A stretch of DNA of 32,000 bases from Flavobacteriaceae bacterium (GCA_965224465.1 OZ245049.1:960001-992000); one strand, 5' to 3'; shown: positions 2,592 to 30,745, counted from the stretch's first letter. Notes: generated by a model from the sequence alone, not told the origin. Numbers and translations are program-made.

Positions 2592-2735
2592 TACAATCCA
2601 AAATGACAGATATAAATGATTTATTTTAGGTTCTAGCGTTGTTAAAAACAAAACGATAGTTATGGCTATCCTTCTAGTTACCGCCTAGCTAAAACAAAAA
2701 ACAATATCATTTTCACACGAATCACAACACCTGTT
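2592..2735 (+). repeat. dispersed intergenic element, copy A (3' part degenerate)
   Basis: Aligns with copies B-F: acaatccaaaatgacagatataaat...ttctagcgttgttaaaaacaaaacgatagttatggctatcc...ccgcctagctaaaacaaaaaa. Internal hairpin is gatagt-tatg-gctatc. Confidence 0.8.
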
Positions 2736-2745
2736 TCTCCGACTC

Positions 2746-3300
2746 CTAATAGATCTTCTTATTATACGAATTCGGATGTTTCGCTGGAATATCCTTATAA
2801 AAGTCCTGAATGCTTTGCATGTCTTTTTCAAAATCACCTGATAGATGAAATAAAGCACCTATAGCAGCCACCTTCTTGGTGTAATCCAAATAACCTAAAG
2901 CAATGGGTAATTTAGATTTCTGAGCAATATGATAAAAACCTGTCTTCCAACGATTTACTTTGTTACGTGTTCCCTCGGCGGGCACCAATAGCATCATATT
3001 ATTGGACTTTTCCAAAATAGTCACAGCGTAATCTACCAAATTATTATTCTTTGATCTGTCTACACCAATAGCTCCCAAGCTTCTAAAAAAAACACCTAGC
3101 AATCCTTTGGTATAACTATCTTTAATAAAAAAAGCAATAGGCATTTCACATTTCCAAAAAAATGACATTGTGTGAACAAAATCCCAATTTGAAGTATGCG
3201 GTGCAGCGACCATAACACATTTATTAGTTTTATATGCAGCAGGGAACTGATAGGTCCAACCACTAAAAAACATGACAATACTTCCAAAAATCTTTTTCAT
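2746..3300 (-). CDS. 1-acyl-sn-glycerol-3-phosphate acyltransferase family protein (PlsC-like)
   Basis: 184-aa ORF with the HX4D motif (HTSNWD) and a PAEGTR block, both typical of lysophospholipid acyltransferases. Confidence 0.8.
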   Translation of the reverse strand: MKKIFGSIVMFFSGWTYQFPAAYKTNKCVMVAAPHTSNWDFVHTMSFFWKCEMPIAFFIKDSYTKGLLGVFFRSLGAIGVDRSKNNNLVDYAVTILEKSNNMMLLVPAEGTRNKVNRWKTGFYHIAQKSKLPIALGYLDYTKKVAAIGALFHLSGDFEKDMQSIQDFYKDIPAKHPNSYNKKIY

Positions 3301-3373
3301 AAATAATTATTTTATAGTGCTTCTTCCACGTTTAGTAATGACAAAATTACTAAACTTTTTAATACTTACTCGA

Positions 3374-4804
3374 TTAATCCTCTTCAAAATGCTCCTTATT
3401 AAACCCAATCAAATAGAGTTTTTCTTGGGCACGAGTCACCGCAGTGTACAACCATCTTAAATACGATACACTTTGACCATCTGGCAAATATGGCTGCTCA
3501 ATAAAAACAGTTTTCCACTGCCCTCCTTGGGATTTATGACACGTAACGGCGTACGAAAACTTAACTTGCAAAGCATTAAAATAGATATTATTCTTAATTG
3601 CTAGCATGCGTTTGTAATTGGATTTTTCATCCGCATAATCCAACGCAACTTCTTGGTATAATTTATTAGACTCCTCATAGGTAAGCGATGGTGTTTCAGA
3701 AGTCAACGTATCTAGTAAAATAACAGTATCAAAAGGGTTTTGATCTGGATAGTCAATCATTCTAATTTTTACTTCAGCAAATCTAAAACCATACAATTCT
3801 TTACTTCCTCTTATTTCCAATACCTCACAAATATCACCATTCGCAATAAATCCAGCATCACTTGTATCATCGAGCCAATAGTAATTATTTTTAACAACCA
3901 TAATATAATCACCTGTAGAGATCTCACTTTCTTGACCACGAATCTTCCCGCGAATTTGAGCATTGTATTGATTTGCTCGTTTATTAGACCTTACTATAAA
4001 AGTAGTATCCTCAACTCCTTCACTGTCATAAGCAACGTTCAATGCGTCTAAAATATCATAACCGTCCTCCAAACGCACGATGTCTGGAAATCCTAATTGA
4101 AATTTAAAAGGTGCAAATCCTCCAGTATTCAAAATATGGCGTAATTCCGTAGCATTTGTAAGTATTCCAGAATTTTTATGTTGGCGCATCACTTCTGTCA
4201 ATTCCACCTCCACTACATTCTTATCATAGTGCATCGATAAATTATCTTTCACCAATGCAGGACTTATATCTAATTTTACAGGAGGTAACTGGGCCGTATC
4301 ACCAATTAACACGAGTTTGCAATTGACACCTGAATATACATAATCTATAAGATCGTCTAATAAAGAACCCGAACTCATAAACTGATTATTACTTGCTTTA
4401 TCTGGAATCATAGAGGCTTCATCCACAAAAAAGATGGTATTTGTGTGTTTATTTACCTGCCGTACAAATTTAATTCCCCCATTAGATTCTTTTTTCGGGT
4501 GGTACATTTTCTTATGAATAGTAAAAGCCTGAGATTTTGAATACCCAGAAATCACCTTTGCAGCCCTACCAGTAGGGGCTAAAAGGACATATTTCTTCCC
4601 TGCAAGCCATAAATTGTTCACAACAGCACTAATTGTTGTTGTTTTCCCTGTTCCTGCGTAACCTTTTAATAAAAAAAGAGCCTTTTTATCAGTAGAAAAA
4701 ATAAAATCTGACAGCTTATCCAGCAGTTCCTCCTGAGTATCAGTAGGTATAAACGGGAATGACTTAGTAATGTGACTATAAAAATCGTTGGCGGTTTTAA
4801 TCAT
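3374..4804 (-). CDS. RecD-like superfamily-1 DNA helicase (AAA_30 / UvrD_C_2 type)
   Basis: Walker A GYAGTGKTT, Walker B FFVDEASM, LIGDTAQLPPV and C-terminal TCHKSQGGQW. I start at the internal Met (MIKTANDF, ATG 4804-4802); the 29-codon upstream extension in the track ORF looks non-coding and overlaps the divergent promoter region. Confidence 0.85.
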   Translation of the reverse strand: MIKTANDFYSHITKSFPFIPTDTQEELLDKLSDFIFSTDKKALFLLKGYAGTGKTTTISAVVNNLWLAGKKYVLLAPTGRAAKVISGYSKSQAFTIHKKMYHPKKESNGGIKFVRQVNKHTNTIFFVDEASMIPDKASNNQFMSSGSLLDDLIDYVYSGVNCKLVLIGDTAQLPPVKLDISPALVKDNLSMHYDKNVVEVELTEVMRQHKNSGILTNATELRHILNTGGFAPFKFQLGFPDIVRLEDGYDILDALNVAYDSEGVEDTTFIVRSNKRANQYNAQIRGKIRGQESEISTGDYIMVVKNNYYWLDDTSDAGFIANGDICEVLEIRGSKELYGFRFAEVKIRMIDYPDQNPFDTVILLDTLTSETPSLTYEESNKLYQEVALDYADEKSNYKRMLAIKNNIYFNALQVKFSYAVTCHKSQGGQWKTVFIEQPYLPDGQSVSYLRWLYTAVTRAQEKLYLIGFNKEHFEED

Positions 4805-4906
4805 GCTTAAAATAAAATGCAAATATACAAATTGATTTATGCTCAAAAATTTTTCTCGTTGAAAAAAAAATGTAAATTTGCGTGTAATCAATTTAAACTT
4901 AAAAAA

Positions 4907-6455: not shown

Positions 6456-7012
6456 TATCTGGAATACATAAAAGCAAACGAATTACAGCACCCAAAAAAC
6501 TACCTGTACGTCCAACTACAGACATGGCAAAAGAAGCCTTGTTTAACATCTTAAACAACTTGTACTATTTAGACAGTATAAGTGTTATAGACTTATTTTC
6601 TGGAACAGGAAACATAAGTTACGAGTTTGGATCAAGATCTTGTCAAAATATTGTAGCAGTAGATGCACATTTTGGCTGTGTTAAATTTATTAAAAGTACA
6701 ACAACAGACCTCAATCTTCCAATTGATGTTGTTAAAAGTGATGTTTTTAAATTTCTGAGTAGAACAAAATTAACTGCGGACATTATATTTGCAGATCCAC
6801 CGTATGATTTTAGCCAAGAACAATTTGAGAACATCGTAAACTTAGTCGTAGAAAATCAATTGGTAAAAGAAGATGGGCTTTTAATTATTGAGCATTCTAA
6901 ACAGACCAAGTTTGAAAACCACCCACATTTTAGCTATGCAAAAAAGTATGGAGGCAATGTCTTTAGTTTTTTTGAATTAAATCATTCTGAAACTAAAGAA
7001 GAGGAAGATTAA
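6446..7012 (+). CDS. rsmD: 16S rRNA (guanine966-N2)-methyltransferase
   Basis: MRIISG..K...I..P....RPT.D..KEALFNIL N-terminus, SAM-binding DLFSGTGN, and the DPPY catalytic motif. Confidence 0.88.
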   Translation: MRIISGIHKSKRITAPKKLPVRPTTDMAKEALFNILNNLYYLDSISVIDLFSGTGNISYEFGSRSCQNIVAVDAHFGCVKFIKSTTTDLNLPIDVVKSDVFKFLSRTKLTADIIFADPPYDFSQEQFENIVNLVVENQLVKEDGLLIIEHSKQTKFENHPHFSYAKKYGGNVFSFFELNHSETKEEED

Positions 7013-7018
7013 ATTTTA

Positions 7019-7972: not shown

Positions 7973-7976
7973 ATAC

Positions 7977-9338
7977 TTAATTTTCTTTTAACCAATTTTT
8001 TTCAAACTCACAATCTTTAAAATCACTATTGATTTTAATATATGTGTCAGCAATTTTCTCTTTTGCCCATTTCTCAATAGATTCTTCTTGTTTCTTTTGA
8101 AGCGTTAAGCGTTGAATTTTTACATAATCATTGATAAAGTTTGCGGTATGCGCATCTTCTTTACTTTTCATTAATATAATTTTAAACATCTTATCCCCTC
8201 CTCTAATCTCATCGTAATAAGCATCTGTAATCTCTGCTGTTTTCAAATTACTTACACGAGCGTATAATGATGGATCCATTCTTGTTAAATCAAAATGTGT
8301 ATCATTCGAATCTGGATTCATTAACACACCTTTGTTCTGCTTTGTCCCTTTATCGTCAGAATATTTCGACACTGCATCTTCAAATGTGATTTTCCCGTCT
8401 AAGATATCCTTTTTTATTGAATTTAAAAGGTCTTCACTTTTCTTTAATTCGACACTTGTAATTTTAGGTTGTATTAAAATATGACGAACATCTCTCTCGC
8501 GACCTTTAATTTTTTCTACAAAAATAATATGATATCCAAATCCAGATTTAAAAGGTTCTGATATTTCACCTTCGTCCAAACTAAAAGCAACTTCCTTAAA
8601 TTCTTTAATAAAACCACTCTGTCTAGTAATGCTATACAAACCACCTCCACCTTGTCCATCCGAAGACACCGCAGGGTCATCCGAATTTAAAATGGCTTTT
8701 AGTTTAAAACTAGAACCATTGGCTATATCCTTTTTTATCTGATTCAAATCGTCAATTACACGCTTCACTTCTTCTGCAGTAGGAACCACGTTTATTACTA
8801 TTTGAGACAATTCTATCTCTGCACCAAACTCAGGTAAATCTCCATCCTTATCCAAGTTTTTAAAATAAGTTCTCACCTCTTCTGGCGTCACATCTATTTT
8901 TTCAATAATGCTTGCGCGTTCTTTTTGAATTAACAATTGTTCTTTTTGAACAGATCCTAATTCTTTACGTAAATCAGCTTCGTCATTAAATCCATAAAAC
9001 TCAATTACTTTATCTAAAGAACCAAGTTGTTGCGTAAAATATTGAATGTTTTGATCTACTTTACTATTCACCTCAGAATCTCCAACAGTTAAACTATCAA
9101 TAACTGCATGATGAGCCAACAATTTTTGGGTCATTATTTCCTCCAACATTTGACAGTCGGAAATTTTAATCTTGCCCTCTGATCTGGTTTCTACATCCGC
9201 TTTAAATTTAGCGATATCGGAATTTAACACAATGTTTTTTCCAATAACAACAGCAACTCCATCTATTTTAATTCTATCCTGAGCCGTTGCTGTAATACCT
9301 AGCATTAACACTCCAAGAATAAGTGTTTTTTTTATCAT
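7977..9338 (-). CDS. SurA-like peptidyl-prolyl cis-trans isomerase (parvulin domain), secreted
   Basis: Signal peptide MIKKTLILGVLMLGITATAQD (start at the internal Met, 9338). Parvulin-type block RHILI...FGYHIIFVE. Confidence 0.8.
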   Translation of the reverse strand: MIKKTLILGVLMLGITATAQDRIKIDGVAVVIGKNIVLNSDIAKFKADVETRSEGKIKISDCQMLEEIMTQKLLAHHAVIDSLTVGDSEVNSKVDQNIQYFTQQLGSLDKVIEFYGFNDEADLRKELGSVQKEQLLIQKERASIIEKIDVTPEEVRTYFKNLDKDGDLPEFGAEIELSQIVINVVPTAEEVKRVIDDLNQIKKDIANGSSFKLKAILNSDDPAVSSDGQGGGGLYSITRQSGFIKEFKEVAFSLDEGEISEPFKSGFGYHIIFVEKIKGRERDVRHILIQPKITSVELKKSEDLLNSIKKDILDGKITFEDAVSKYSDDKGTKQNKGVLMNPDSNDTHFDLTRMDPSLYARVSNLKTAEITDAYYDEIRGGDKMFKIILMKSKEDAHTANFINDYVKIQRLTLQKKQEESIEKWAKEKIADTYIKINSDFKDCEFEKNWLKEN

Positions 9339-16535: not shown

Positions 16536-16691
16536 ACTTAGTTTTTATAGCGCCAATATATGTATTAAATTGAATTAAACAAAATTAATTCCTTTTAAAA
16601 CAGGAATCTTAACAGTACTTTTAGAAAAACCACTTTTTTTGAGCATTGGAGATCCTAAACTATCTATTAATAAACCTATATTTTGGAATAA

Positions 16692-16852
16692 TACCAACCA
16701 CAATCCAAAATAACAGATATAAATAGCGCATTGTACGTTCTTGTGTTGTTGAAAAACAGAACGACATCTAAAGGTGTCCTTCCATTTTCCGCCTAGCTAA
16801 AACAAATAATAATTCCATCTCTAAACCGTCACTTGAAAATGTATTTGGTATA
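16692..16852 (+). repeat. dispersed intergenic element, copy B
   Basis: ataccaaccacaatccaaaataacagatataaatag...gttgttgaaaaacagaacgacatctaaaggtgtcc...ccgcctagctaaaacaaa...cgtcacttgaaaatgtatttggtat. The hairpin gacatc-taaa-ggtgtc carries compensatory changes relative to copies A and E. Confidence 0.85.
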
Positions 16853-16973
16853 ATTTAAGAAAACCAAAATTTAAACTCACAAATTAGAGAACGCTTAATC
16901 TACATACAATGAAGACATTGTAATTAAGCTTAAAAATTAATTCGCTTTTAATGTAAAAAACTTTCAAAACAAG

Positions 16974-17003
16974 TTGGTAGATCTATATAATTGCCTATAT
17001 TTG
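16974..17003 (+). promoter_or_regulatory. Bacteroidota-type promoter for tRNA-Met (-33 TTG, -7 TATATTTG)
   Basis: TTG at 16974-16976, a 19-nt spacer, and TATATTTG at 16996-17003. The tRNA 5' end lies 13 nt downstream. Confidence 0.55.
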
Positions 17004-17015
17004 CACTCGCAAAAA

Positions 17016-17089
17016 GGCGTGGTAGCTCAGTTGGTTAGAGCGTCGGATTCATAACCCGGAGGTCTGCAGTTCAATTCTGCATCACGCTA
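17016..17089 (+). tRNA. tRNA with CAT anticodon (Met elongator; a lysidine-modified Ile2 cannot be excluded)
   Basis: Hand-folded cloverleaf: acceptor ggcgtgg/tcacgct (two G-U pairs), D arm gctc-agttggtta-gagc, anticodon loop ttCATaa, T arm tgcag-ttcaatt-ctgca. It is not initiator-like (no C1-A72 mismatch, no GGG/CCC in the anticodon stem). No CCA is encoded. Confidence 0.85.
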
Positions 17090-17095
17090 CAAGTA

Positions 17096-17128
17096 AAGCG
17101 ATTTAGGAAACTAAATCGCTTTTTTTTG
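17096..17128 (+). terminator. intrinsic terminator after tRNA-Met
   Basis: aagcgatttag-gaaa-ctaaatcgctt hairpin followed by a T8 run. Confidence 0.75.
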
Positions 17129-17572
17129 TTTAAAATTTAGAGAAATCAACTTCTTAAAAACTGATAAAGGCTGGAGGATATACCAGAGATCAGTTGGACT
17201 GCTGATCATTACTTTTACCGTGAAAATAATTCGAATATATGTATTTCCCTTCTTGTTAATTTAACAGGTCATCCCTCTGGGATTCTTATTCTATTAATTT
17301 TTTATTTGCTACGAACAGTTTGTCCCTCTGGGACTTCTACTTTTACCTGCTACAGAAAAGTAATTTGTTTGTGTTTCATCTTTTATAACATCACTTTTGA
17401 AAGTCGATTTCTGTAATTGAGAAAGCAGGATATATTCTAATAATTGTCTCTTATAATATGCTCCGTAGGTGCAAACTGTTTGTTTTGTTATAATACCTGT
17501 GATATATTTGTGCGATTCATCACTGTTTTATTTATGTATTAGGGTTTGCCTGCCTTTTAACGTAAAAACAAT

Positions 17573-17770
17573 TTGAATGTATATTTGCGTATATGTATTT
17601 GCCTTCTTGTTAATTTAACAGGTCATCCCTCTGGGATTCTTATTCTATTAATTTTTTATTTGCTACGAACAGTTTGTCCCTCTGGGACTTCTACTTTTAC
17701 CTGCTACAGAAAAGTAATTTGTTTGTGTTTCATCTTTTATAACATCACTTTTGAAAGTCGATTTCTGTAA
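17573..17770 (+). CDS. questionable 65-codon TTG-start ORF inside array unit 2 (hydrophobic, Cys-rich)
   Basis: Track ORF. The start codon is TTG, not ATG, and there is no in-frame ATG. It is repeated in units 2-5 only because the DNA is repeated. Confidence 0.15.
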   Translation: MNVYLRICICLLVNLTGHPSGILILLIFYLLRTVCPSGTSTFTCYRKVICLCFIFYNITFESRFL

Positions 17771-17924
17771 TTGAGAAAGCAGGATATATTCTAATAATTG
17801 TCTCTTATAATATGCTCCGTAGGAGCAAACTGTTTTTTTGTTATAATTCCTGTAATATATTTGTGCGATTCATCACGGTTTTGTTTATGTATTAGGGTTT
17901 GCCTGCCTTTTACCCTAAAACAAT

Positions 17925-18122
17925 TTGAATGTATATTTGCATATATGTATTTGCCTTCTTGTTAATTTAACAGGTCATCCCTCTGGGATTCTTATTCTAT
18001 TAATTTTTTATTTGCTACGAACAGTTTGTCCCTCTGGGACTTCTACTTTTACCTGCTACAGAAAAGTAATTTGTTTGTGTTTCATCTTTTATAACATCAC
18101 TTTTGAAAGTCGATTTCTGTAA
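17925..18122 (+). CDS. questionable 65-codon TTG-start ORF inside array unit 3
   Basis: Same as 17573..17770, with one R-to-H difference. Confidence 0.15.
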   Translation: MNVYLHICICLLVNLTGHPSGILILLIFYLLRTVCPSGTSTFTCYRKVICLCFIFYNITFESRFL

Positions 18123-18276
18123 TTGAGAAAGCAGGATATATTCTAATAATTGTCTCTTATAATATGCTCCGTAGGTGCAAACTGTTTTTTTGTTATAATT
18201 CCTGTAATATATTTGTACGATTCATCACGGTTTTGTTTATGTATTAGGGTTTGCCTGCCTTTTACCCTAAAACAAT

Positions 18277-18474
18277 TTGAATGTATATTTGCGTATATGT
18301 ATTTGCCTTCTTGTTAATTTAACAGGTCATCCCTCTGGGATTCTTATTCTATTAATTTTTTATTTGCTACGAACAGTTTGTCCCTCTGGGACTTCTACTT
18401 TTACCTGCTACAGAAAAGTAATTTGTTTGTGTTTCATCTTTTATAACATCACTTTTGAAAGTCGATTTCTGTAA
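18277..18474 (+). CDS. questionable 65-codon TTG-start ORF inside array unit 4
   Basis: Identical protein to 17573..17770. Confidence 0.15.
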   Translation: MNVYLRICICLLVNLTGHPSGILILLIFYLLRTVCPSGTSTFTCYRKVICLCFIFYNITFESRFL

Positions 18475-18629
18475 TTGAGAAAGCAGGATATATTCTAATA
18501 ATTGTCTCTTATAATATGCTCCGTAGGTGCAAACTGTTTTTTTGTTATAATTCCTGTAATATATTTGTGCGATTCATCACGGTTTTGTTTATGTATTAGG
18601 GTTTGCCTGCCTTTTAACGTAAAAACAAT

Positions 18630-18827
18630 TTGAATGTATATTTGCGTATATGTATTTGCCTTCTTGTTAATTTAACAGGTCATCTCTCTGGGATTCTTAT
18701 CCTATTAATTTTTTATTTGCTACGAACGGTTTGTACCTCTGGGACTTCTACTTTTACCTGCTACAGAAAAGTAATTTGTTTGTGTTTCATCTTTTATAAC
18801 ATCACTTTTGTAAGCCATTTTTTGTAA
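18630..18827 (+). CDS. questionable 65-codon TTG-start ORF inside diverged array unit 5
   Basis: The ORF length is preserved despite 9 nt differences: 4 codons changed synonymously and 4 non-synonymously. This is not decisive. Confidence 0.15.
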   Translation: MNVYLRICICLLVNLTGHLSGILILLIFYLLRTVCTSGTSTFTCYRKVICLCFIFYNITFVSHFL

Positions 18828-19089
18828 TTGAGAAAGCAGGTTGTTTTCTAATATTTGTTCGGGTTGTGTGGTCATACTTGCCTCTTATAACATGCTCCGT
18901 AGGAGCAAACTGTTTGTAGCACCATAGGTGCGACCTGTTAATCTATCCATTCAAATAATCATTTTTCCCAAATCCTCACTTAAACACCTATAAATGATGC
19001 GTGTGAAACTTTAGTTATTAATGGACAGTCTTGGCTTTTGTGCTATTAATAATTATAATAATGTAGTTTAGTTTCTGCTTCAAAAGTTT

Positions 19090-20004
19090 TTAATTCCACC
19101 CCTTACTCTTAAGTACCCATCCATTATTAAGTTTAATGACAGGAGGTTTCACCTGTAATTTATTATAGTATTTTTCAAATATCTTATCTTCCTTTTCTTT
19201 GTCCTCAGTGGCGTACGAATAAGCGAACATGAATTTGGGTTGGGACGCAAGGATTTTTACGCGTTTGTCAATGAGACCAAAATCTTGCTTTTGAATTAAA
19301 GTTTTTTTCATTTCAGCCATAAAAGATTTCGGATTTCGTTCGATTGAACTTTCATAACATCTTAAATGAGCTTCGAGTCCAGATACACCACCTAGAGCCC
19401 CACTTCCTTTCTTAAGCTCAATAACACAAAGAACTCCTGCTTTATTTACCGCTATGATATCAAATCTAGGTTTTTTTATTTTCCCATTTCTCCCTTTATA
19501 GATACAAGCAAATTTACTTTTCGTACTCACTTGATATTCTATGTCAATAATTGTATAGTCAGATTTTCCATCACGATTTTCAATAGATAATTGATGTTGC
19601 TCTATCCTTTCTGGTTTCTGATTTAGTTTGATCCATTTATCCATAACCCCTTTGGCTTCATCAAAATATTCCTTAAAATTACCTGATTTGAATTTTTGGG
19701 TCAACTCATTTCTTTTCTGTGTCAATCTTTCTATCATCTCGCTACCTAAATCTTTTGCAGCTCCATTTTCTCCTGTATAGAAATAGTTTTTATTAAACAA
19801 TACGCTATTTGCGCTACTAACCATGGCTATATTTCCTCCTTGATAATAGATATTCAAGTAATTGTTTCGAATTTGAACATCTAATTTATTTCTGTCCTTA
19901 TAAATTACATCAAGCATTGGTTTCAACGCACCTGATTTCAATGTCAATGCATCCCACAACTTACCTTTATGAATTCCTCTACCTAAGTATTCCTTATCCA
20001 CCAT
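19090..20004 (-). CDS. PD-(D/E)xK nuclease-fold protein, family unassigned (possibly a Shedu/DUF4263-like or restriction-endonuclease-like orphan)
   Basis: 304 aa with a clean ATG start. The core motif is PRFD(182)IIAVNKAGVLCVIE(196)LK(198)KG, a beta-strand with D, then a hydrophobic strand with ExK, followed by LEAHLRCY. The N-terminal ~130 aa has no motif I recognise. Confidence 0.6.
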   Translation of the reverse strand: MVDKEYLGRGIHKGKLWDALTLKSGALKPMLDVIYKDRNKLDVQIRNNYLNIYYQGGNIAMVSSANSVLFNKNYFYTGENGAAKDLGSEMIERLTQKRNELTQKFKSGNFKEYFDEAKGVMDKWIKLNQKPERIEQHQLSIENRDGKSDYTIIDIEYQVSTKSKFACIYKGRNGKIKKPRFDIIAVNKAGVLCVIELKKGSGALGGVSGLEAHLRCYESSIERNPKSFMAEMKKTLIQKQDFGLIDKRVKILASQPKFMFAYSYATEDKEKEDKIFEKYYNKLQVKPPVIKLNNGWVLKSKGWN

Positions 20005-20129
20005 GATTTCTTAATTTATTTAACTCCCTTTTTAAAAATTTGACAACTAATTAATTACATCTGTATCTTTCCCCAATTCTGGAATAGTTTAGAATCTGCA
20101 AAGCAAAAAAGGTGACACAGATGTATTAT

Positions 20130-20166
20130 GTACTTATCAAAACTTTTCCAAGGATTTGATAAGTAC
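20130..20166. promoter_or_regulatory. perfect 12-bp inverted repeat upstream of the nuclease gene
   Basis: gtacttatcaaa (20130-20141), a 13-nt loop, then tttgataagtac (20155-20166). It lies about 125 nt upstream of the minus-strand start at 20004. No adjacent T-run fits a terminator on either strand. Confidence 0.35.
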
Positions 20167-20193
20167 ATAAAAAAATAAAACGTTCAATGCTGT

Positions 20194-20228
20194 GAAAAAA
20201 TGGCTGATTGTATTTAACAACAGCCATT
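20194..20228 (-). terminator. intrinsic terminator for the 45-aa minus-strand ORF
   Basis: aatggctg (20199-20206) pairs with cagccatt (20221-20228). On the minus strand the hairpin is followed by TTTTTT(C). It starts 6 nt after the stop codon at 20234-20236. Confidence 0.6.
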
Positions 20229-20233
20229 AAAAA

Positions 20234-20371
20234 CTACTTTTTAGAATTTTTAGCACCAGCACTACTTGCTCTTGCAGAGAAAGATGATTTTGAAACTGAT
20301 CCATTTCCTCTTTTTGCAGTTGAACTTTGTATTCTTGCTGCAGCACTTGCAGTCATTTTTGACTTACTCAT
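20234..20371 (-). CDS. small (45 aa) Ser/Ala/Lys-rich protein with an SMP/LEA-like motif; not in the ORF track
   Basis: My translation: MSKSKMTASAAARIQSSTAKRGNGSVSKSSFSARASSAGAKNSKK. It has an ATG start and a TAG stop followed directly by a hairpin plus T-run terminator. The AAxRIQS...K.SF.ARA.SA pattern resembles small stress/seed-maturation-like proteins. Confidence 0.5.
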   Translation of the reverse strand: MSKSKMTASAAARIQSSTAKRGNGSVSKSSFSARASSAGAKNSKK

Positions 20372-20536
20372 ACACTTAATTTATACTGATTATTACACAA
20401 ATTTAAAAGGTAAAAAATAACTGTTACTAGATTTTGATTGACAAGGAGTTTTCTTAAAATCTAATACGATAACTCTTCGAAATACTAAGTACAACTAATT
20501 TAAAAACTTTAAATAAGCGACCCTTTTACTTATAAT

Positions 20537-20690
20537 TGCAATCCAAAATAACCGATATAAATAGTTTATTTTACGTGCTTGCATTGTTTAAAAACAGAAC
20601 GATAACAAAGGCTATACATCCATTTTCCGCCTATCTAAAACAAAAAATAATTCCATTTCTAAACTGTCACTTGGGAATTTAATTGGAATT
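20537..20690 (+). repeat. dispersed intergenic element, copy C
   Basis: tgcaatccaaaataaccgatataaatagtttattttacgtgcttgcattgtttaaaaacagaacgataacaaaggctatac...ccgcctatctaaaacaaaaaataattccatttctaaactgtcacttgggaatttaattggaatt. The internal hairpin is degenerate (4 of 6 pairs). Confidence 0.85.
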
Positions 20691-20831
20691 ACATCCGTTT
20701 TTTGAACAAGTGATTTTCTCGAAAGAACTCACCCAATGGACTGGATGATCATTCGTATTAACTCCACACCCTGTGGTTCCTCCTTTTTGCCCTTTGTGGA
20801 CTTCGTTTGTTGGATAGTGTTTTACTGCCAT
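20679..20831 (-). CDS. small (50 aa) Cys/His/Gly-rich hypothetical protein
   Basis: Track ORF 20679..20867. I prefer the second ATG (MAVKHYPTNEVHKGQKGGTTGCGVNTNDHPVHWVSSFEKITCSKNGCNSN), because the first 12 codons overlap an AT-rich promoter-like stretch. Four Cys and four His suggest metal binding. Confidence 0.4.
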   Translation of the reverse strand: MAVKHYPTNEVHKGQKGGTTGCGVNTNDHPVHWVSSFEKITCSKNGCNSN

Positions 20832-21289
20832 GATAATAGAATTTAGGTTTTGAAAATTATATAACATTAAAACTACACTAACATACGTTATATACTCATG
20901 ATAAATATCATTTCATAATTTAGCGTTAAACCGCACAGGACAAACGCACATTTTATACTCAATACGATTATCCGGCACACTTGATTCCTACTTACTTTAA
21001 GTCTTTTTCCTACAACACTTTATTTTTTGTATTTTTTTCTCCATAAAATAAAAGCGATTTTTAATGGTATTTAATAGCTTTGAATCTCATTTTTATATCT
21101 TTATCTAAAGACATCTTCAGAGAAAGCAACATCTAATGTCTAATGTAATTTATTTGTTACACCCATTGCTCTTCAAACTCCGAAAACCTCAATTATTGTA
21201 TCTTTTTGTTTTTATTAAATCTTTCTTTTTTTTACCTGAGGGATAGTAGTGGCATCCTTTTTTGTTTTTGGGCAAAAAAGATATAACGT

Positions 21290-21313
21290 ATAGCCCGACC
21301 CTTGGGGCAGGCC
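21290..21313 (-). repeat. GC-rich hairpin element, left copy (inverted relative to 21947-21976)
   Basis: The reverse complement gcctgccccaagggtcgggctata matches gcctcgccccaagggtacgaggtata downstream of the YkoF-like gene. On its own strand it is followed by a T-rich tract. Confidence 0.6.
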
Positions 21314-21575
21314 CAAATAATTATTACTTTTCATTTTCCCCACCTTTAAAAGATGTTTGAATTCCTAATTACGAACAAAAGTCCGCTATTTAATCACGTT
21401 TAATAAACAGTCTTCCAAAATCACGAAATCCAATACGCATTATTTGAAATGAATAAGCAATCCTAAAATAACATCCAACTAATTGGAATAATTTCTCTTT
21501 GATAATGATTTTATTTTACTACCTACATTCAACATTTTCACTATCTTTGTCTCTATAACTAATACCCATAAATTA

Positions 21576-21887
21576 ATGTCAGTACTATTAGAATTTGCCA
21601 TATTCCCCCTCGACAAAGGCGAGAGCGTAAGTCCTTATGTGAGTAATGTGGTACGTATGATACGCGAAAGTGGCGTTACGTATCAATTAACACCTATGGG
21701 AACCATCATAGAAACCGAAACCATGGCCGAAGCATTGGCTATTGTACAACAGTCTTATGATGTCCTGGAACCTGATTGTGACCGCGTGTATTCGACGCTT
21801 ACCATTGATATTCGCAAAGGTAAAAGCCAATGCTTGACAGGGAAAATAAAATCGGTAGAAAAAATTATTGGAGAGGTAAACAAATAG
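21576..21887 (+). CDS. MTH1187/YkoF-family (DUF77) thiamine-binding-like protein
   Basis: 103 aa. MSVLLEFAIFPLDKGESVSPYV...YQLTPMGTIIE..., the typical MTH1187 family N-terminus and size. Confidence 0.85.
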   Translation: MSVLLEFAIFPLDKGESVSPYVSNVVRMIRESGVTYQLTPMGTIIETETMAEALAIVQQSYDVLEPDCDRVYSTLTIDIRKGKSQCLTGKIKSVEKIIGEVNK

Positions 21888-21946
21888 TTGTCTTAAGACT
21901 TTTAAATTATTTTTATAATTTCAACTCCTTTAATCGTGTTTAGATC

Positions 21947-21976
21947 AACAGCCTCGCCCCAAGGGTACGAGGTATA
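21947..21976 (+). terminator. GC-rich hairpin element, right copy; probable terminator of the YkoF-like gene
   Basis: AACAG, then cctcgccc-caa-gggtacgagg (8 bp with a 2-nt bulge), followed by tatatttcc...ttttttt. It lies 60 nt after the stop. Confidence 0.4.
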
Positions 21977-22248
21977 TTTCCGGAATGTTTTTTTGTTTCG
22001 AGGAAAACCCTATAAAAATAAAATCACTAACGAGATACTAAACAAGTAGTTAGCTGTAATTAATCATCCTCCTTTGGATGTAATCTACTCGAATTTAGAA
22101 GATGCTTAGAATGGTTTTTTTTATTTTACAGAGTGATAATTCTTTAATGAATTGTGTTATTTCTTTACAGAACCCAGCTAGATGCTCAAAAAAAGCTCTT
22201 ACTAATTTTGGACACAAAATATCATCGCTTGTATTTAGAGTGTTATTT

Positions 22249-22412
22249 ATACCAACTTCAACACAAAATGACCCGTATAAATAGTTTGTTTTACGTACTA
22301 GCGTAGTTAAAAAGCAAACAGAACGATAGCGAAGGTTATCCATCGATTTTTTGAGTCGCTAAAACAAAAAATAGTCTATTTTTAAAACGTCACTTGGAAA
22401 TGTATTGGGATT
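22249..22412 (+). repeat. dispersed intergenic element, copy D
   Basis: ataccaacttcaacacaaaatgacccgtataaatagtttgttttacgtactagcgtagttaaaaagcaaacagaacgatagcgaaggttatcc...cgctaaaacaaaaaa...cgtcacttggaaatgtattgggatt. The hairpin gatagc-gaag-gttatc is intact with one G-U pair. Confidence 0.85.
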
Positions 22413-22642
22413 CGTAATTTTGGAGACTAAATATTATCGTTTATATTCAGAGTGTTATATACTCGAGCGTACACCATGAATTCTTTTCTTTATTTTTTTA
22501 ACCGCCATCTATTATATTATGAGCTAATTCTTGGTTTCCACAACCTTTTATCTTTCTAGAATTCCACTCTTGGACAAGTGCTAAAATACATCTTGTTAAA
22601 TTTTGGGCATTAAAAAAGGCCTGATAAAATCAGACCTTTTAG

Positions 22643-22717
22643 GGTGAAAGACCGGTTTCGAACCGGCGACCTCCTGAACCACAATCAGGCACTCTAACCA
22701 ACTGAGCTACAATCACC
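22643..22717 (-). tRNA. tRNA-His (GTG) with encoded G-1
   Basis: Hand fold of the reverse complement: G-1, acceptor gtgattg, D arm gctc-agttggtta-gagt, anticodon stem cctga/tcagg with loop ttGTGgt, T arm gccgg-ttcgaaa-ccggt, 3' acceptor ctttcac, then C73. G-1:C73 is the His identity element. Positions 5:68 and 6:67 are U-U mismatches. Confidence 0.8.
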
Positions 22718-22768
22718 ATCTCTCTTGCGAGTGCAAATGTACACTATTTTATAGTTCTCACAAACTAT

Positions 22769-23485
22769 TTAGAACAAATTTTCTAAAGAATTTACAGCAA
22801 CAAACCGTTCTACAGTATAGCCTTCAGCGTAATCTACTCCTACTAAGCGACCTAAGTCTTGTGCGCGATAAGAAATACTATCAATAAAATTTTTACTTGT
22901 AATAGGAGACGTAGGTTCTTTACTCTTAGGGTCGTAAAATTGGGATGCATACGCCATCACTGAAGCTATTTTTATATCCATAAATCCCGACACATTCACC
23001 ACAAAATCTGGTTTTATATTTTGCCATTGTATATAATGATAAACTACTTTTGGACGCCAAGCCTCTTGAGGTTCTCCTTCTAAAAACGTTTCGATTTTAC
23101 GAAGCCCCGACAAAAAACAGGCATTAGACACAAGATCACTTCCTTTTGGGTGATCAATATGACGATCGCTAACTGCATTACACAATACAATAGAAGGCCT
23201 ATATTTCCGAATCATTTTTACGACTTCCAATTGGTGTTCTTTATCATTTACAAAAAAACCGTCTGCAAATCCAAGATTCTCTCGAACACTTACCTTTAAT
23301 ATAGCAGCTGCGGCATCTGCTTCTTTTTTTCGGATTTCAGCAGAACCACGTGTCCCCAGTTCTCCTTTTGTTAGATCAATAATTCCAACTCGTTTCCCTA
23401 AAGAAATTTCCTTAGCAATTGTCCCTGAACATCCAATCTCCACATCATCTGGGTGTGCACCAAACGCCAAAATATCTAATTTCAT
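22769..23485 (-). CDS. bshB1: bacillithiol biosynthesis deacetylase BshB1 (LmbE/PIG-L family)
   Basis: MKLDILAFGAHPDDVEIGCSGT...DLTKGELGTRG...HIDHP, the LmbE zinc-deacetylase motifs. 238 aa. Confidence 0.85.
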   Translation of the reverse strand: MKLDILAFGAHPDDVEIGCSGTIAKEISLGKRVGIIDLTKGELGTRGSAEIRKKEADAAAAILKVSVRENLGFADGFFVNDKEHQLEVVKMIRKYRPSIVLCNAVSDRHIDHPKGSDLVSNACFLSGLRKIETFLEGEPQEAWRPKVVYHYIQWQNIKPDFVVNVSGFMDIKIASVMAYASQFYDPKSKEPTSPITSKNFIDSISYRAQDLGRLVGVDYAEGYTVERFVAVNSLENLF

Positions 23486-23606
23486 AAACCTTGTTTATAG
23501 TTAAAAAAACATGCTTCTCATAAATAACATGCAATGGCAACAAAGATAATGCATTGCGTACAATTAATCCATTAATACACTAATTCAAGACTAAAAACAA
23601 CAACTA

Positions 23607-23770
23607 ACACCAACTACAATCCAAAATATCAGATATAAATAGTTTATTTTACGTGCTAGCGTTGTTAAAAACCAGAACGATAGCTATGGCTATCCTTCCA
23701 TTTTTCGTCTAGATACAACAAAAAATAATTCCATTTCTAAACCCTCACTTGGAAAGGTATTTGTTGTAAG
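23607..23770 (+). repeat. dispersed intergenic element, copy E (closest to consensus)
   Basis: acaccaactacaatccaaaatatcagatataaatagtttattttacgtgctagcgttgttaaaaaccagaacgatagctatggctatccttccatttttcgtctagatacaacaaaaaataattccatttctaaaccctcacttggaaaggtatttgttg. Confidence 0.85.
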
Positions 23771-26139: not shown

Positions 26140-29100
26140 ATGAAAAAAATAATTAGTCATTTTATAAAGTTTCCTGTTGCGGTAAATGTAATTATTCTCG
26201 CATTTATAGTCTTTGGTGTTATAGGGGCAAAATCTATGTTATCTTCTTTTTTCCCACTTACAGAATCTGAACTCATACGCATAAACATAATATATCCAGG
26301 CGCTTCACCATCAGAAATGGAAGAAGGAATTGTATTAAAAATAGAAGACAATCTAAAAGGAACTGTTGGTATTGACAGGGTGACCTCTATTTCTAAAGAA
26401 AATGCTGCAACTATTAGTATAGAAATAGAAACAAATAAGGACATAGACGTTGTATTGGCTGATGTGAAAAATGCAGTAGATCGAGTGCCTTCATTCCCAA
26501 CAGGTATGGAGCCTCCAATAATCGCAAAAGTAGAAAGCATAAGGCCTACCATAACTTTTAGCATTAGCGGAGAAAATCTCTCCTTAAAAACACTTAAAAA
26601 TTACGCACGTCAGATAGAAAATGATTTACGTGCAATGCAAGGTATTTCACAAATTTTGTTGACAGGATTCCCTTTAGAAGAAATCGCTATTTCTATTCGA
26701 GAACATAAATTGCAAGCGTTTAATTTATCATTTAAAGAAGTTGCAAATGCCGTGAGCAACGCAAATATTTTAATTTCTGGAGGCTCTATTAAAACCAAAC
26801 AAGAAGAATATCTAATAAGAGCCAAGAATCGTTCGTACTACGGAAATGAACTTCACAACCTTATCGTAAGAGCCAATCCAAATGGGACAATTATTCGATT
26901 AAAAGACATCGCACGAATTGAGGATACTTGGTCAGAAACACCAGATCGTATATTTTATAACGGAAAAAAAGCCATCAATATTACCGTTAGTAACACCAAC
27001 AATGAAGATTTAATAACTACGGCAGACAAGGTTAAAAAATATATCTTAAAGTTCAATCAACAACATGACAATGTTTCCCTAAATATATCAAGTGACTCCT
27101 CCACTACCCTAGTACAACGTACAGAATTACTCACTGAAAACGCCATAGCAGGTGTAAGTTTAGTCTTATTCTTTTTAGCACTTTTCTTAAATGCTCGTTT
27201 GGCTTTTTGGGTAGCAGCTGGAATTCCAGTAGCATTTTTCGGAATGTTTATGTTCGCAGCACAATTTGGTGTTACCATTAACGTATTGTCCCTTTTTGGG
27301 ATGATTATAGTAATTGGTATCTTGGTAGATGATGGAATTGTTATTGGAGAAAATATTTATCATCATTACGAAAAAGGAAAAACACCTATCCGTGCAGCTA
27401 TTGATGGAACATTAGAGGTTATGCCTCCCATTGTTTCTGCTATTTTAACCACCATTGTGGCTTTTTCAACCTTCTTTTTTTTAGACGGGCGTATTGGTAA
27501 ATTCTTTAGTGAAGTCGCATTGGTTGTCACACTAACGCTACTTGTCTCATTAATCGAAGCTTTGATAATATTACCTGCACATATTGCACATTCAAAGGCA
27601 TTGCAACGCAAAGGAAAAAAAGACAGTAAAATAGATCTGATATTTAAGAAAGTAAACAACGTCTCCGAAACATATTTGTTCAAATTTAGAGACGGAGTAT
27701 ACGTTCCATTTATGAGGTTCTTTTTAAAACATAAATTTCTCGGATTTGCAATTCCTATAGCCTTACTTATATTGAGTTTTGGTGCTTTAAAAGGAGGTAT
27801 TGTAGGCACTTCTTTTTTTCCTAAAATAGCCAGTGATCGGATTTCTATTCGCTTAAAAATGCCGCAAGGTACAAATGAACAAATAACGGATTCCATTATC
27901 AGTCAAATAGAAAAAAACGTATGGCTCATAAATAAGGAATATAGCAAAAACCAATCAGACAGCCTTCAAATAGTAGAAAACATAATCAAACGGATAGGTC
28001 CTGGAAGCGCGAATGCATCACTCACCGTAAATTTATTACCTGGAGAATCACGTAACTTTTCATCCTTTGAAATAAATAATGCAATCAGAGAGAAAACAGG
28101 AACTATTTATGGCGTAGAAACAGTGTCTTTTGGATCCAATTCTAACTTTGGAGGAAAACCCATTGCTATATCACTTTTGGGAAATAATATAGATGCTTTA
28201 AAAGCAGCAAAAAATGAATTAAAAACCTTTCTATTGAACAATTCTGTTCTAAAAGATGTAGCCGATAATGACCCCGAAGGAATCAAGGAAATTCAAATAA
28301 AATTAAAAGAAAAGGGGACTATTCTTGGGTTGGATTTACGAACAATAATGGAACAAATAAGAGCTGGGTTTTTCGGATTTCAAGTCCAACGATTCCAACG
28401 TGGACAAGACGAAATAAAAGTTTGGGTTCGCTATGAAAAAGAAGACAGGTCCTCTATTAAAAATTTAGAGAAAATGTGGATCCGAACCCCTTCAGGTAAA
28501 AATATTCCATTTTCCGAAATAGCAACCTATACGATTCAACGTGGTGATGTAGCCATCAATCACTTGTCTGGAAAGAGAGAAATTCAACTTTATGCAGACA
28601 TGAAATCTTTTGATGGTAGTGCCGTGGATGTATTGGATGATATCAAAGAAAATGTGATGCCAAAAATTACAGCTAAATACCCAAGTGTATCCGCTGTGTA
28701 TGAAGGTCAAAATAGAGAGAAAGACAAAACCATGGAATCTGCAAAAAAAGTGGGACCCATTATTCTTATGCTCATATACATTATCATCGCTTTTACATTT
28801 AGATCCTATAGCCAACCCTTATTATTAATGCTAATGATTCCTTTTAGCTTGATTGGAGTTATCTGGGGTCATTATTTACATCATTTCCAAATAAATATTT
28901 TGTCATGGCTTGGAATAATTGCCTTGGTCGGAATCATGGTAAACGATGGTCTGGTATTTATTGGTAAATTCAACACCTATTTAAAAGAGGGGATAAAATT
29001 TGAAGAAGCACTAATTCAAGCAGGAAGGTCTAGATTTAGAGCTATTTTTCTTACTTCACTTACAACTGTAGCAGGGCTTGCGCCACTTATGTTGGAAACT

Positions 29101-29319
29101 AGCAGACAAGCGCAATTTTTAATTCCTATGGCTATTTCTATAGCTTACGGAATTGCCATCGCAACGGTATTAACGTTGGTTATGCTTCCTTTACTCCTCG
29201 CCTTTTCTAATGATATTAAAGTGTTTTTAAAATGGATGCGTACTGGAGAAAAAGTAACAAAAGAAGAAGTAGAACGCGCTATTATAGAACTTAAATCTGA
29301 ATCTGATGAATTACACTAA
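26140..29319 (+). CDS. RND efflux permease (AcrB/AcrD/AcrF family)
   Basis: 1059 aa. MKKIISHFIKFPV N-terminus, two large periplasmic loops, and two 6-TM bundles with GIIVIGILVDDGIV and GIIALVGIMVNDGLV motifs. Confidence 0.93.
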   Translation: MKKIISHFIKFPVAVNVIILAFIVFGVIGAKSMLSSFFPLTESELIRINIIYPGASPSEMEEGIVLKIEDNLKGTVGIDRVTSISKENAATISIEIETNKDIDVVLADVKNAVDRVPSFPTGMEPPIIAKVESIRPTITFSISGENLSLKTLKNYARQIENDLRAMQGISQILLTGFPLEEIAISIREHKLQAFNLSFKEVANAVSNANILISGGSIKTKQEEYLIRAKNRSYYGNELHNLIVRANPNGTIIRLKDIARIEDTWSETPDRIFYNGKKAINITVSNTNNEDLITTADKVKKYILKFNQQHDNVSLNISSDSSTTLVQRTELLTENAIAGVSLVLFFLALFLNARLAFWVAAGIPVAFFGMFMFAAQFGVTINVLSLFGMIIVIGILVDDGIVIGENIYHHYEKGKTPIRAAIDGTLEVMPPIVSAILTTIVAFSTFFFLDGRIGKFFSEVALVVTLTLLVSLIEALIILPAHIAHSKALQRKGKKDSKIDLIFKKVNNVSETYLFKFRDGVYVPFMRFFLKHKFLGFAIPIALLILSFGALKGGIVGTSFFPKIASDRISIRLKMPQGTNEQITDSIISQIEKNVWLINKEYSKNQSDSLQIVENIIKRIGPGSANASLTVNLLPGESRNFSSFEINNAIREKTGTIYGVETVSFGSNSNFGGKPIAISLLGNNIDALKAAKNELKTFLLNNSVLKDVADNDPEGIKEIQIKLKEKGTILGLDLRTIMEQIRAGFFGFQVQRFQRGQDEIKVWVRYEKEDRSSIKNLEKMWIRTPSGKNIPFSEIATYTIQRGDVAINHLSGKREIQLYADMKSFDGSAVDVLDDIKENVMPKITAKYPSVSAVYEGQNREKDKTMESAKKVGPIILMLIYIIIAFTFRSYSQPLLLMLMIPFSLIGVIWGHYLHHFQINILSWLGIIALVGIMVNDGLVFIGKFNTYLKEGIKFEEALIQAGRSRFRAIFLTSLTTVAGLAPLMLETSRQAQFLIPMAISIAYGIAIATVLTLVMLPLLLAFSNDIKVFLKWMRTGEKVTKEEVERAIIELKSESDELH

Positions 29320-30619
29320 ACGAATCTTTATAATTTGTTGTTATACGGGATTCTTATCTGCCCAAGAAACATTAACAAAAACAGCCGCAGTGGCATTGAC
29401 ACTAGAACATAATTACGGCATATTATTAGCAAATAATACCACAAAAATTGCCGCAAATAATACGTCCATATACAATACGGGGTATTTGCCAACACTTACA
29501 GGAAATGGAAATGCAACCTATACTAGAAATAATAGTGACTTAGAATTACAAAACGGAAAAAACACCACTATAAACAATGCCGACTCAAAAAATTTCGGCA
29601 TCAGTATTGGACTCAACTATGTGCTATTTGATGGTTTTGGACGTTCCTACAATTTTAAAAAATTACAACATACGCATCACCTTTCAAAACTAGAGACGAA
29701 AGCGGTAATAGAGCGCACTATTATCCAGTTATTTAACAAATACTATTTGGTGGCAGAACTAGCGCAAAGTAAGGATCTAATAGAAACTTCTTTGAATATC
29801 TCAAAGACTAGGTTAAAACGCGAAAAATACATGTACGATTATGGCCAGTCTACAAAACTAGACCTCTTAAATGCCGAAGTAGATGTAAATAACGACCGGA
29901 TTAAGCTGTTAAACAGCATTCAATTATTAAATAATTCTAAACGAGAAATCAACTTAATACTAGGTAGAAATGTAGCTACAAAATTTAACGTAGATCCCCA
30001 TGTAACTTTTGATTTAGTTTTTAATTTATCTTCTTTAATAGAAAGTTCAAAACTTCAAAACATAGCTGTTCAACAGTTAGAAAAAAACATAAAAATAGCA
30101 GCTCTAAATATTAAAATAAACACGGCCACATCTGTACCTAGTCTTCATTTTAACAGCAGTTATAAATGGAACAAAACAGCCAATGACCCTACATATACAT
30201 TTGCCAACCAAACGGTAAAAGGGATCAATGCAGGAGTAAACCTCCGTTGGAATATTTTTGATGGTGGACGCACAAAAACACGTGTTGCAAATAGCAAAAT
30301 ACTTGCTGAAAATCTTAAACTCAAAGAATCGTTATTGGCGAATGAAATAGAATTATTTGTTAGAAATGTGTTTACACAATATCAAAATGCTCTTATTATT
30401 ATAGACGCAGAAAAAAAGAACGTAGAAACCAACAATCACAATTTTAATCGCACAAACGAGCAATATAAACTCGGGCAAATCACCTCTATCGTATTTAGGC
30501 AAGCACAAGTAAATCTAATCAATGCACAAACAAACCTAAATAAAGCCACCTATGCCGCTAAAATAGCAGCCTTAAATTTATTGCAATTATCTGGAGCATT
30601 ATTAGAAAGTAGTTTTTAA
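29306..30619 (+). CDS. TolC-family outer membrane efflux protein
   Basis: 437 aa with a signal peptide and the duplicated OEP repeat pattern (...LFDGFGR..., ...IFDGGRTK...). It overlaps the pump gene by 14 nt. Confidence 0.88.
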   Translation: MNYTKRIFIICCYTGFLSAQETLTKTAAVALTLEHNYGILLANNTTKIAANNTSIYNTGYLPTLTGNGNATYTRNNSDLELQNGKNTTINNADSKNFGISIGLNYVLFDGFGRSYNFKKLQHTHHLSKLETKAVIERTIIQLFNKYYLVAELAQSKDLIETSLNISKTRLKREKYMYDYGQSTKLDLLNAEVDVNNDRIKLLNSIQLLNNSKREINLILGRNVATKFNVDPHVTFDLVFNLSSLIESSKLQNIAVQQLEKNIKIAALNIKINTATSVPSLHFNSSYKWNKTANDPTYTFANQTVKGINAGVNLRWNIFDGGRTKTRVANSKILAENLKLKESLLANEIELFVRNVFTQYQNALIIIDAEKKNVETNNHNFNRTNEQYKLGQITSIVFRQAQVNLINAQTNLNKATYAAKIAALNLLQLSGALLESSF

Positions 30620-30745
30620 CAACAAATTCAATTCCAAATAACGGGTAAAAATCAACTATTCTCTGTTTTTTAACAACGCTAGCACGTAAAACAAACTTTT
30701 TATATCGATCATTTTGAATTGTAGGTTGGTATAAGTTGGTATAAG
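30620..30745 (-). repeat. dispersed intergenic element, copy F (short variant, opposite orientation)
   Basis: The reverse complement reads ataccaacctacaattcaaaatgatcgatataaaaagtttgttttacgtgctagcgttgttaaaaaacagagaatag...cccgttatttggaattgaatttgttg. It starts 1 nt after the tolC-family stop. Confidence 0.8.

Follow-up and report, generated by a model that had tools for sequence, protein, structure and literature searches.

Transposable elements of the miniature inverted-repeat type (MITEs) are numerous in the Bacteroidota, including Flavobacterium (PMC11602168). Those described in bacteria include Correia/NEMIS of Neisseria, ERIC/IRU of enterobacteria, MITE239 and BrickBuilt of Porphyromonas gingivalis, and thousands that have been defined computationally in Flavobacterium and other Bacteroidota (PMC11602168, PMC4596501); the MITEs of P. 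gingivalis are mobilised by elements of the IS5 family (PMC4596501). Target-site duplications of 3 bp are typical of this bacterial family, and the related PIF/Harbinger elements duplicate TWA, that is, TAA or TTA (PMC4482050). In this study, a dispersed repeat of about 160 bp was analysed that occurs six times (copies A to F) in 32,000 nt of the genome of a Flavobacteriaceae bacterium (GCA_965224465.1, OZ245049.1:960001-992000; 32.9% G+C), the whole of which is referred to below as the window. We consider it probable, at roughly 0.6, that the six sequences are copies of a non-autonomous, non-coding DNA transposon of the MITE type that duplicates a TWA target, which would make it a new family of a known kind.

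The element resembles the bacterial MITEs named above in being 100-200 bp long, AT-rich, non-coding and intergenic, and also in its tens of copies, its imperfect palindrome that folds into a rod, its inverted ends and short flanking repeats, its deletion variants and its patchy distribution. It differs from them in that no sequence similarity was found in plasmid and phage collections or in the literature, the inverted termini are weaker, and no parent insertion sequence was identified. Correia and ERIC duplicate TA, whereas the element described here duplicates the trinucleotide TWA. The 3-bp TWA duplication is the hallmark of Tourist-type MITEs and PIF/Harbinger elements, which, unlike the present element, are mostly eukaryotic. 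The termini found here (TACCAAC...) bear no resemblance to the IS5-type ends (GAGACCTTTGCA) given for P. gingivalis or Neisseria, and the present element is linked to these transposons by the duplication signature alone.

The six copies had been noticed in an earlier reading of the window made from the sequence alone, which gave them a length of about 125-165 nt. All six were present at the positions proposed, far beyond chance; the length was revised when the borders were set by a mutual alignment of the copies' ends, giving an element proper of 156-161 bp. Copy A (2585 to about 2745) is probably of full length, with its 5' two-thirds well conserved and its 3' ~45 nt strongly diverged. Copies B (16692-16850, 159 bp, with termini TACCAA.../...TTGGTA), C (20533-20688, 156 bp, with a mutated 5' terminus), D (22250-22410, 161 bp) and E (23608-23766, 159 bp) are full-length and, like copy A, lie on the + strand. 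Copy F (30620-30731, - strand) is a form of 112 bp with an internal deletion. A pattern of the 25 positions that are invariant in the six copies matched exactly those six sites in the window, compared with 0.00 matches expected from shuffled sequence, and a looser core of 19 positions, with up to three mismatches allowed, gave six matches compared with 0.09 expected.

Pairwise identity was 74-89% in the 5' block of 82 nt, and 76-82% in the remainder of the element among copies B to E. Similarity ended at the element borders, which indicates that the copies are not segmental duplications or parts of larger duplications. With a mutual divergence of about 20%, the copies in the window are old and decaying.

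The earlier description of the copies as strictly intergenic held, since all six sit between real genes whose products are supported by Pfam matches and the open reading frames (ORFs) that overlap the copies are spurious. The neighbours are housekeeping genes, namely those for a prolyl oligopeptidase, an acyltransferase, a START-like protein, tRNA-Met, a thiamine-binding protein, tRNA-His and BshB1 (bshB1), and marR with an RND efflux operon and its gene for the outer-membrane efflux protein (OEP). Copies A and F directly follow stop codons, and the 3' end of copy A abuts the stop codon of the acyltransferase gene (CTA, or TAG on the minus strand, 2746-2748). Copy B is located between the divergent START_2 gene and tRNA-Met, copy D between the converging genes for the thiamine-binding protein and tRNA-His, and copy E between the divergent bshB1 and marR.

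A first line of evidence for transposition came from the trinucleotides that border the copies. Copy B is flanked by TAA on both sides (16689-16691 and 16851-16853), as is copy E (23605-23607 and 23767-23769); copy C is flanked by TTA on both sides (20530-20532 and 20689-20691), and copy D by TTA (22247-22249) and TTC (22411-22413). On the + strand, copy F lies between two TAA triplets, one at 30617-30619 that forms the stop codon of the OEP gene and one at 30732-30734; in the orientation of the element, they correspond to TTA and TTA. Copy A has TTA on its 5' side (2582-2584). The flanking trinucleotides were identical in four of the five copies with both flanks (B, C, E and F), compared with a chance identity of 0.024 per copy in the window, and the middle base agreed on the two sides in all five and differed between copies. 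Because TAA and TTA are reverse complements of each other, an extension of the inverted repeat would place TTA before the element and TAA after it, which is not the pattern seen. The flanks are direct and not inverted repeats, as a TWA target-site duplication predicts, rather than a fixed end of the element. Furthermore, the OEP protein has 437 aa both in the source genome and in relatives that lack the element, with a TAA stop at the same codon position, which identifies the TAA at 30617-30619 as host sequence and the second TAA at copy F as its duplicate.

These flanks also bear on a different kind of mobility. A hairpin-dependent single-strand DNA element, REPIN/BIME-like or derived from IS200/IS605, would be moved through its folded hairpins by a Y1 (HUH) transposase or a RAYT, and would account for both a compensated stem and the orientation of five of the six copies on the same strand. 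The central hairpin with compensation, a second hairpin on the 3' side (CCATTTC/GAAATGG) and the weakness of the inverted termini are consistent with such an element, and REP, BIME and REPIN sequences are likewise dispersed intergenic palindromic repeats with compensation in the stem. The defining features of REPs were not seen here, however. REPs are 20-40 nt long and not 160, bear a tag (GTAG or CGTC) and are associated with a RAYT gene (PMC3733652), whereas the alignment contains no invariant 5' tetranucleotide of this type and the window no Y1 or RAYT gene. IS200/IS605 elements and REPs also make no target-site duplication (for REPs, PMC3733652), in contrast to the identical flanking trinucleotides described above, and although five of the six copies lie on the strand whose GC skew is negative, this bias lacks significance (two-sided binomial p ~0.2). 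Movement as single-stranded DNA is considered quite unlikely.

Comparison with relatives, at genus-level divergence, provided the second line of evidence for a mobile element. The closest relatives of the source organism in the databases have BshB1 proteins that are 85-89% identical. Their regions covering marR, the efflux genes, OEP and a DEAD-box helicase gene (L011 and L014-L019), which include the sites of copies E and F, contain no copy; the spacer between bshB1 and marR is too diverged between these genomes and the source for the exact borders of the copy E insertion to be placed. In a strict scan of metagenomes from JGI, a single further copy was detected (63.7 bits), in a locus that was recovered twice (L013 and L028). 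It is the only copy in the 345,645 nt of the compared loci (L011-L033), the other ~320 kb containing none. The locus belongs to another flavobacterial lineage, as its PPTase falls into a 90%-identity cluster with a member labelled Kordia sp. and another match (75%) is from Pseudofulvibacter. The neighbours of the L013 copy are the convergent genes hemD and ahcY, each with a canonical terminator, and the copy is located between these two terminators. Relatives of this organism (PPTase 85-91% identical) have the same flanks without the element, with spacers of 110 and 265 nt compared with 446 nt, and on the 5' side of the copy the homology with the empty site restarts right after the TTA that the duplication model predicts. 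Presence in one genome and absence at the orthologous position in others, which the earlier reading had named as a sign of mobility, was accordingly observed at the sites of copies E and F and of the L013 copy.

In its 5' block, the L013 copy is 77-84% identical to the copies in the window and is as similar to them as they are to each other, which fits descent from a conserved mobile master and not vertical inheritance of neutral spacer DNA. A third lineage is represented by an ENA metagenome contig of 1.9 kb (P0260), in which a gene of the UPF0158 family runs into a copy that appears to be of full length. The match to UPF0158 covers only the first ~97 of 157 profile positions before the element begins, which suggests that the element was inserted inside the gene.

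A possible remnant of the element at an empty site (L021) was rejected, as 56-235 of 500 shuffled sequences reached its score. Between the ahcY stop codon and its terminator, a heptanucleotide microsatellite was noticed, with ~16 units of AAAATCT in L013 (500-611) and L028 (~8355-8465) and ~6 units of AAAATTC at the same site in L021 (~8410-8455) and L020; it is absent in L031. In viral contigs, the loose pattern of 19 positions gave chance matches only and a second pattern none, and blastn searches of plasmid and phage collections returned no similar sequence. No description of the sequence was found in literature searches for it and for flavobacterial repeats.

Deletion derivatives that keep both termini provided the third line of evidence. 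The absence of the hairpin section from copy F had been recorded before; the copy proved to be the product of an internal deletion, in which 73 nt from the 5' side of the element run directly into ~40 nt from its 3' side. The alignment of its tail with the last ~40 nt of copies D and E was matched in score by 0 and 2 of 500 shuffles, respectively. The deleted part is located between a pair of direct repeats inside the element (TAAAAACAG... and TAAAACAAA...), and TAAAACA is the direct repeat that flanks the recurrent deletions. The second derivative, a short form like copy F, is the copy behind one of the protein matches described below (P0257); its 3' end, as deduced from the peptide EVGI, appears to be GTTGGTAT, which is exactly complementary to the 5' ATACCAAC. 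The 5' end of copy F (30725-30744) contains a tandem duplication of its terminal 7 nt together with the TAA beside them (GTTGGTATAA GTTGGTATAA), the extra GTTGGTATAA occupying 30735-30744; this may be an aberrant end or a product of slippage.

Inverted termini had also been proposed. They are present, but the outermost ends, TACCAAC.../...TTGGTA, lie a few bases outside the register suggested, and in single copies they are weak. At the level of the consensus, 13-14 of 20 positions match, the 5' consensus TACCAACTACAATCCAAAAT agreeing with the reverse complement of the 3' end of copy B (TACCAAATACATTTTCAAGT) at 14 of 20. The termini of copies B and E match at 10 of 16 positions without gaps, and TACCAA/TTGGTA in copy B is a perfect pair. 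Palindromy over the whole length is modest in copies A, B, D and E (z 2.3-3.4) and was not seen in copy C or the L013 copy.

An imperfect palindromic architecture is also found in attC sites, and copies B to E, which have one orientation, lie 1.4-3.8 kb apart around small genes, and the four together span 7.1 kb of a region that lacks synteny with relatives. They could in principle be attC-like recombination sites of an integron-like cassette array. However, the intervals between the copies hold tRNA genes and the housekeeping gene bshB1 instead of promoterless cassettes, and copies A and F and the L013 copy are solitary and located in conserved housekeeping contexts. Moreover, the conservation extends along the whole element, its centre being conserved as well as its ends, the ends TACCAAC and TTGGTA do not fit RYYYAAC/GTTRRRY cores, and no integrase gene is present in the window. 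A cassette array is regarded as highly improbable.

The interpretation of the repeat as a MITE is based on the 3-bp TWA direct repeats at its flanks, on its presence or absence at orthologous sites, and on the deletion derivatives that keep the ends, and the same observations favour the MITE-like termini that the earlier reading had offered as one of two alternatives to each other. MITEs are ~50-800 bp long and lack coding capacity, and the element has 156-161 bp, or 112 bp in the short form, and is non-coding. It also has the target-site duplication and the dispersed copies with insertion polymorphism that are expected of a MITE, with at least 11 copies in the source genome and with empty sites at the positions of copies E and F and the L013 copy.

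From these features we infer a mechanism of transposition and a family of transposase. A DDE transposase encoded elsewhere in the genome would bind the short imperfect termini (5' TACCAACTACAAT... and ...ATGTATTTGGTA 3') and would insert the element into a TWA target (TAA or TTA), so that the trinucleotide is duplicated on both sides. This enzyme would be of the IS5 or PIF-Harbinger type, by analogy with the signature at the target sites. Insertions would survive where they are harmless, either between genes or, as proposed for copy F, exactly on a TAA stop codon that is regenerated by the duplication. As an imperfect long palindrome, either strand is predicted to fold into a rod with a hairpin of 6-9 bp at its tip, and recurrent deletions between the internal TAAAACA repeats would yield the short forms with both ends.

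Several observations weigh against the identification as a MITE. The genes of the window include no transposase and no full-length parent element. The inverted termini are short and imperfect, weaker than the 10-15 bp or more that is usually required of a MITE; within single copies, composition-matched shuffles do as well (the best, copy F, being equalled by 43 of 1000), and the perfect match in copy B is limited to TACCAA/TTGGTA. The register of the flanks was picked after the ends had been seen, and if TWA is counted as part of the element, the duplication rests on the concordance of the middle base in five of five copies (p ~0.04-0.1) and on the stop codon at copy F. Neither a recent, near-identical copy nor a clean pair of filled and empty sites with a single TWA was found among the sequences compared; the lack of a clean pair can be attributed to the divergence of these relatives, whose intergenic DNA is largely unalignable. 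The occurrence of six of perhaps a few tens of copies inside 32 kb is not accounted for by this interpretation, and the paired substitutions in the hairpin of copy B, described below, are unexpected under pure neutral decay.

The tip hairpin, on the + strand, was located at 2655-2670 in copy A (GATAGT-TATG-GCTATC), 16763-16778 in copy B (GACATC-TAAA-GGTGTC), 20601-20616 in copy C, 22325-22340 in copy D and 23679-23694 in copy E. It has 6 bp, three of them G-C, can be extended to 9 bp, and is bordered by an A-run and a T-run. As had been reported, it is present in copies A, B, D and E and degraded in C, which has lost two pairs; it is perfect in copy E, contains one G-T wobble in copy D, and shows two double substitutions in copy B, in which T-A is changed to C-G and G-C to U-G. 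In the nine-pair stem of the five full copies, 88.9% of the cells are paired, and two pairs are changed on both sides. The sequence-only reading had taken this compensation as an argument for selection on a folded RNA or single-stranded DNA. That conclusion was too strong, since copy B alone carries both double changes and column shuffling equalled these values in 38-45 of 500 cases, and the compensatory changes are only suggestive.

The hairpin raises the alternative that the copies are structured RNA genes or cis-acting RNA elements, transcribed and with a long imperfect hairpin fold that is kept by selection. In addition to the paired stem and its double substitutions, this alternative is favoured by the three wobble pairs of the tip on the top strand, and by the copy in another lineage being conserved as much as the copies within the genome. 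The alifold structure of the whole element was 86% paired with four double changes in five sequences, and its pairing and covariation scores were reached by 3-5 of 500 shuffles (covariation 5 of 500) and its pair count by 32 of 500; this structure was derived from the same five sequences, and unconstrained related sequences often reach such values. When the L013 copy and copy F were added, however, the consensus structure collapsed (-2.2 kcal/mol), and in the L013 copy the tip hairpin is replaced by a different sequence, with an insertion of 21 nt in place of the 3' arm. The folding energies are unexceptional (z -1.1 and -2.0), and the evidence for a strand is inconsistent, as the bottom strand folds more stably overall and the wobble pairs favour the top strand. 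By inspection, no Bacteroidetes-type promoter (TTG / TAnnTTTG) was found at a conserved position on either strand of the element, in contrast to the clear one before tRNA-Met. All orientations towards the neighbouring genes are represented among the copies, that in L013 lies between two convergent terminators, and the family is absent from near relatives. In searches of Rfam 15, no copy had a match at the gathering thresholds or at E<=1. On this evidence, a function as host RNA is unlikely. The hairpin is instead read as the maintenance of a DNA palindrome; it would be a by-product or, at most, something that the element itself needs, and is not good evidence for a host RNA.

Flavo-1 (RF01705), which had been suggested as a possible identity, was rejected, as the best score of any copy was 15.6 bits (minus strand of copy E, in a search with 201 nt) compared with a gathering threshold of 42. 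Flavo-1 RNA is likewise a non-coding feature specific to Flavobacteria but differs in sequence, size (76 nt) and structure. A true Flavo-1 RNA is located elsewhere in the window, at 21230-21304 (+), where it is the sole copy; the match is full-length (62.6 bits) and lies ~270 nt upstream of the small gene of the thiamine-binding-protein family (PF01910, 21576-21887).

Coding functions were rejected as well. All reading frames are broken by stop codons or frameshifts that vary from copy to copy, including the two frames that are open over the conserved block, whose interruptions fall at different points in different copies. A small protein or type I toxin was considered for an ORF of 14 aa on the bottom strand (MELFFVLARRKMEG), which is intact in copies B, C and E only; it is truncated, frameshifted or absent in copies A, D and F and the L013 copy, and replacements outnumber silent changes.

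In a simple scan, the hairpin with its T-run was flagged as terminator-like on both strands in copy E and on the + strand in copy B. The copies might thus be a mobile or domesticated bidirectional terminator module, in which the tip hairpin with its A- and T-runs stops transcription from either side and is retained at gene ends, as the locations of copies A and F right after stop codons and of copy D between convergent genes would suggest. Copies B and E, in contrast, lie between divergent genes, where no terminator is needed, and copy F, which has the most terminator-like placement, has lost the hairpin. In addition, the L013 copy is located beyond the canonical terminators that both of its neighbours have of their own, and the stem is short (6 bp, three G-C). 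A terminator module is therefore thought very unlikely. A combined possibility is a mobile hairpin cassette that targets TAA or TTA, including stop codons, and whose compensated tip stem, with the A-run and T-run beside it, has a function in RNA, either as a bidirectional terminator or as a stabiliser of 3' untranslated regions; the element would then not be a purely selfish repeat. It appears improbable, but if it were true, the family would spread a regulatory module to gene ends and would be kept across flavobacterial genera on that account.

The number of copies in the source genome (5.24 Mb) was estimated by comparing the translated conserved block with public protein sets, as ORFs have sometimes been called across the repeats. 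A word-indexed search of 5.8 billion proteins gave four matches, all from the source genome, of which one is the window ORF over copy D; the other three (P0256, P0257 and P0259) are at most 77% identical to any copy in the window and are therefore from other loci. An exhaustive search of 1.84 billion representatives added two ORFs of the source genome (P0261 and P0263), the gene on the metagenome contig described above (P0260) and a weak match (P0262). P0261 and P0263 are 159 aa long and 97% identical to each other, with the 5' block of the element following an N-terminus of 35 aa (MLSTLDPMDLKQIITLHRDGESNHSIGSTLG...) that looks like a helix-turn-helix but has no Pfam match. Their near-identity indicates that a larger unit, of at least 480 nt with a truncated copy, has itself been duplicated, and this unit could be part of an insertion sequence.

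Together with the six copies in the window, these five matches (P0256, P0257, P0259, P0261 and P0263) give at least 11 copies in the source genome. Since only one of the six window copies is visible by protein search, the true number is probably a few tens and not hundreds. The high genomic copy number that had been extrapolated from the window was not borne out, as with a few tens of copies genome-wide those in the window form a local cluster. Numbers of 10-20 per genome are typical of bacterial MITEs (PMC4596501), and our estimate matches the usual range. The weak match is from a marine transcript catalogue (MERC, ERR1711953_548193), and consists of an ORF of 152 aa with three tandem repeats of ~40 aa, each containing I-K-S-L-F-Y-V-L-G-L-L-K. 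These repeats resemble the translated conserved block (E = 7e-4), and may represent a distant, tandemly arranged and transcribed relative or a chance similarity.

Other features were noted in the vicinity of the copies. The region from the START-like gene to bshB1 (~16540-22720) is not syntenic with relatives, in which a FUSC or a UvrA-like gene follows bshB1. It is island-like and holds tRNA-Met, a tandem array, a family-less ORF of 304 aa (19090-20004), Flavo-1 and tRNA-His, as well as copies B, C and D, copy E being located just past bshB1. The array (17202-18912), directly downstream of tRNA-Met and its terminator, consists of 4.6-5 copies of a unit of 352 nt that are 97% identical. The length of the period cannot be divided by three, and neither a convincing ORF nor an Rfam match was found in the unit; each unit contains three short hairpins that are rich in G+C and precede T-runs. 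A common block of 50 nt (16963-17012 and 22725-22774) was found immediately upstream of both tRNA-Met and tRNA-His, the two being 76% complementary as an inverted pair. In the block at tRNA-Met, a promoter of the Bacteroidetes type (TTG ... TATATTTG) is present, and the block may be a promoter module shared by the two tRNA genes.

As MITEs are already known to be numerous in the Bacteroidota, the element opens no new biological question. For annotation, it is of use because spurious ORFs are called across its copies, and four such ORFs of the source genome are present in public protein sets. If our interpretation is correct, the repeat represents a MITE family that had not been described before, found in marine-type Flavobacteriaceae and making a TWA duplication, a signature that is best known from the eukaryotic Tourist/PIF-Harbinger elements and the IS5 elements related to them. 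Such an element could serve as a strain marker, and would point to a transposase in the source genome.

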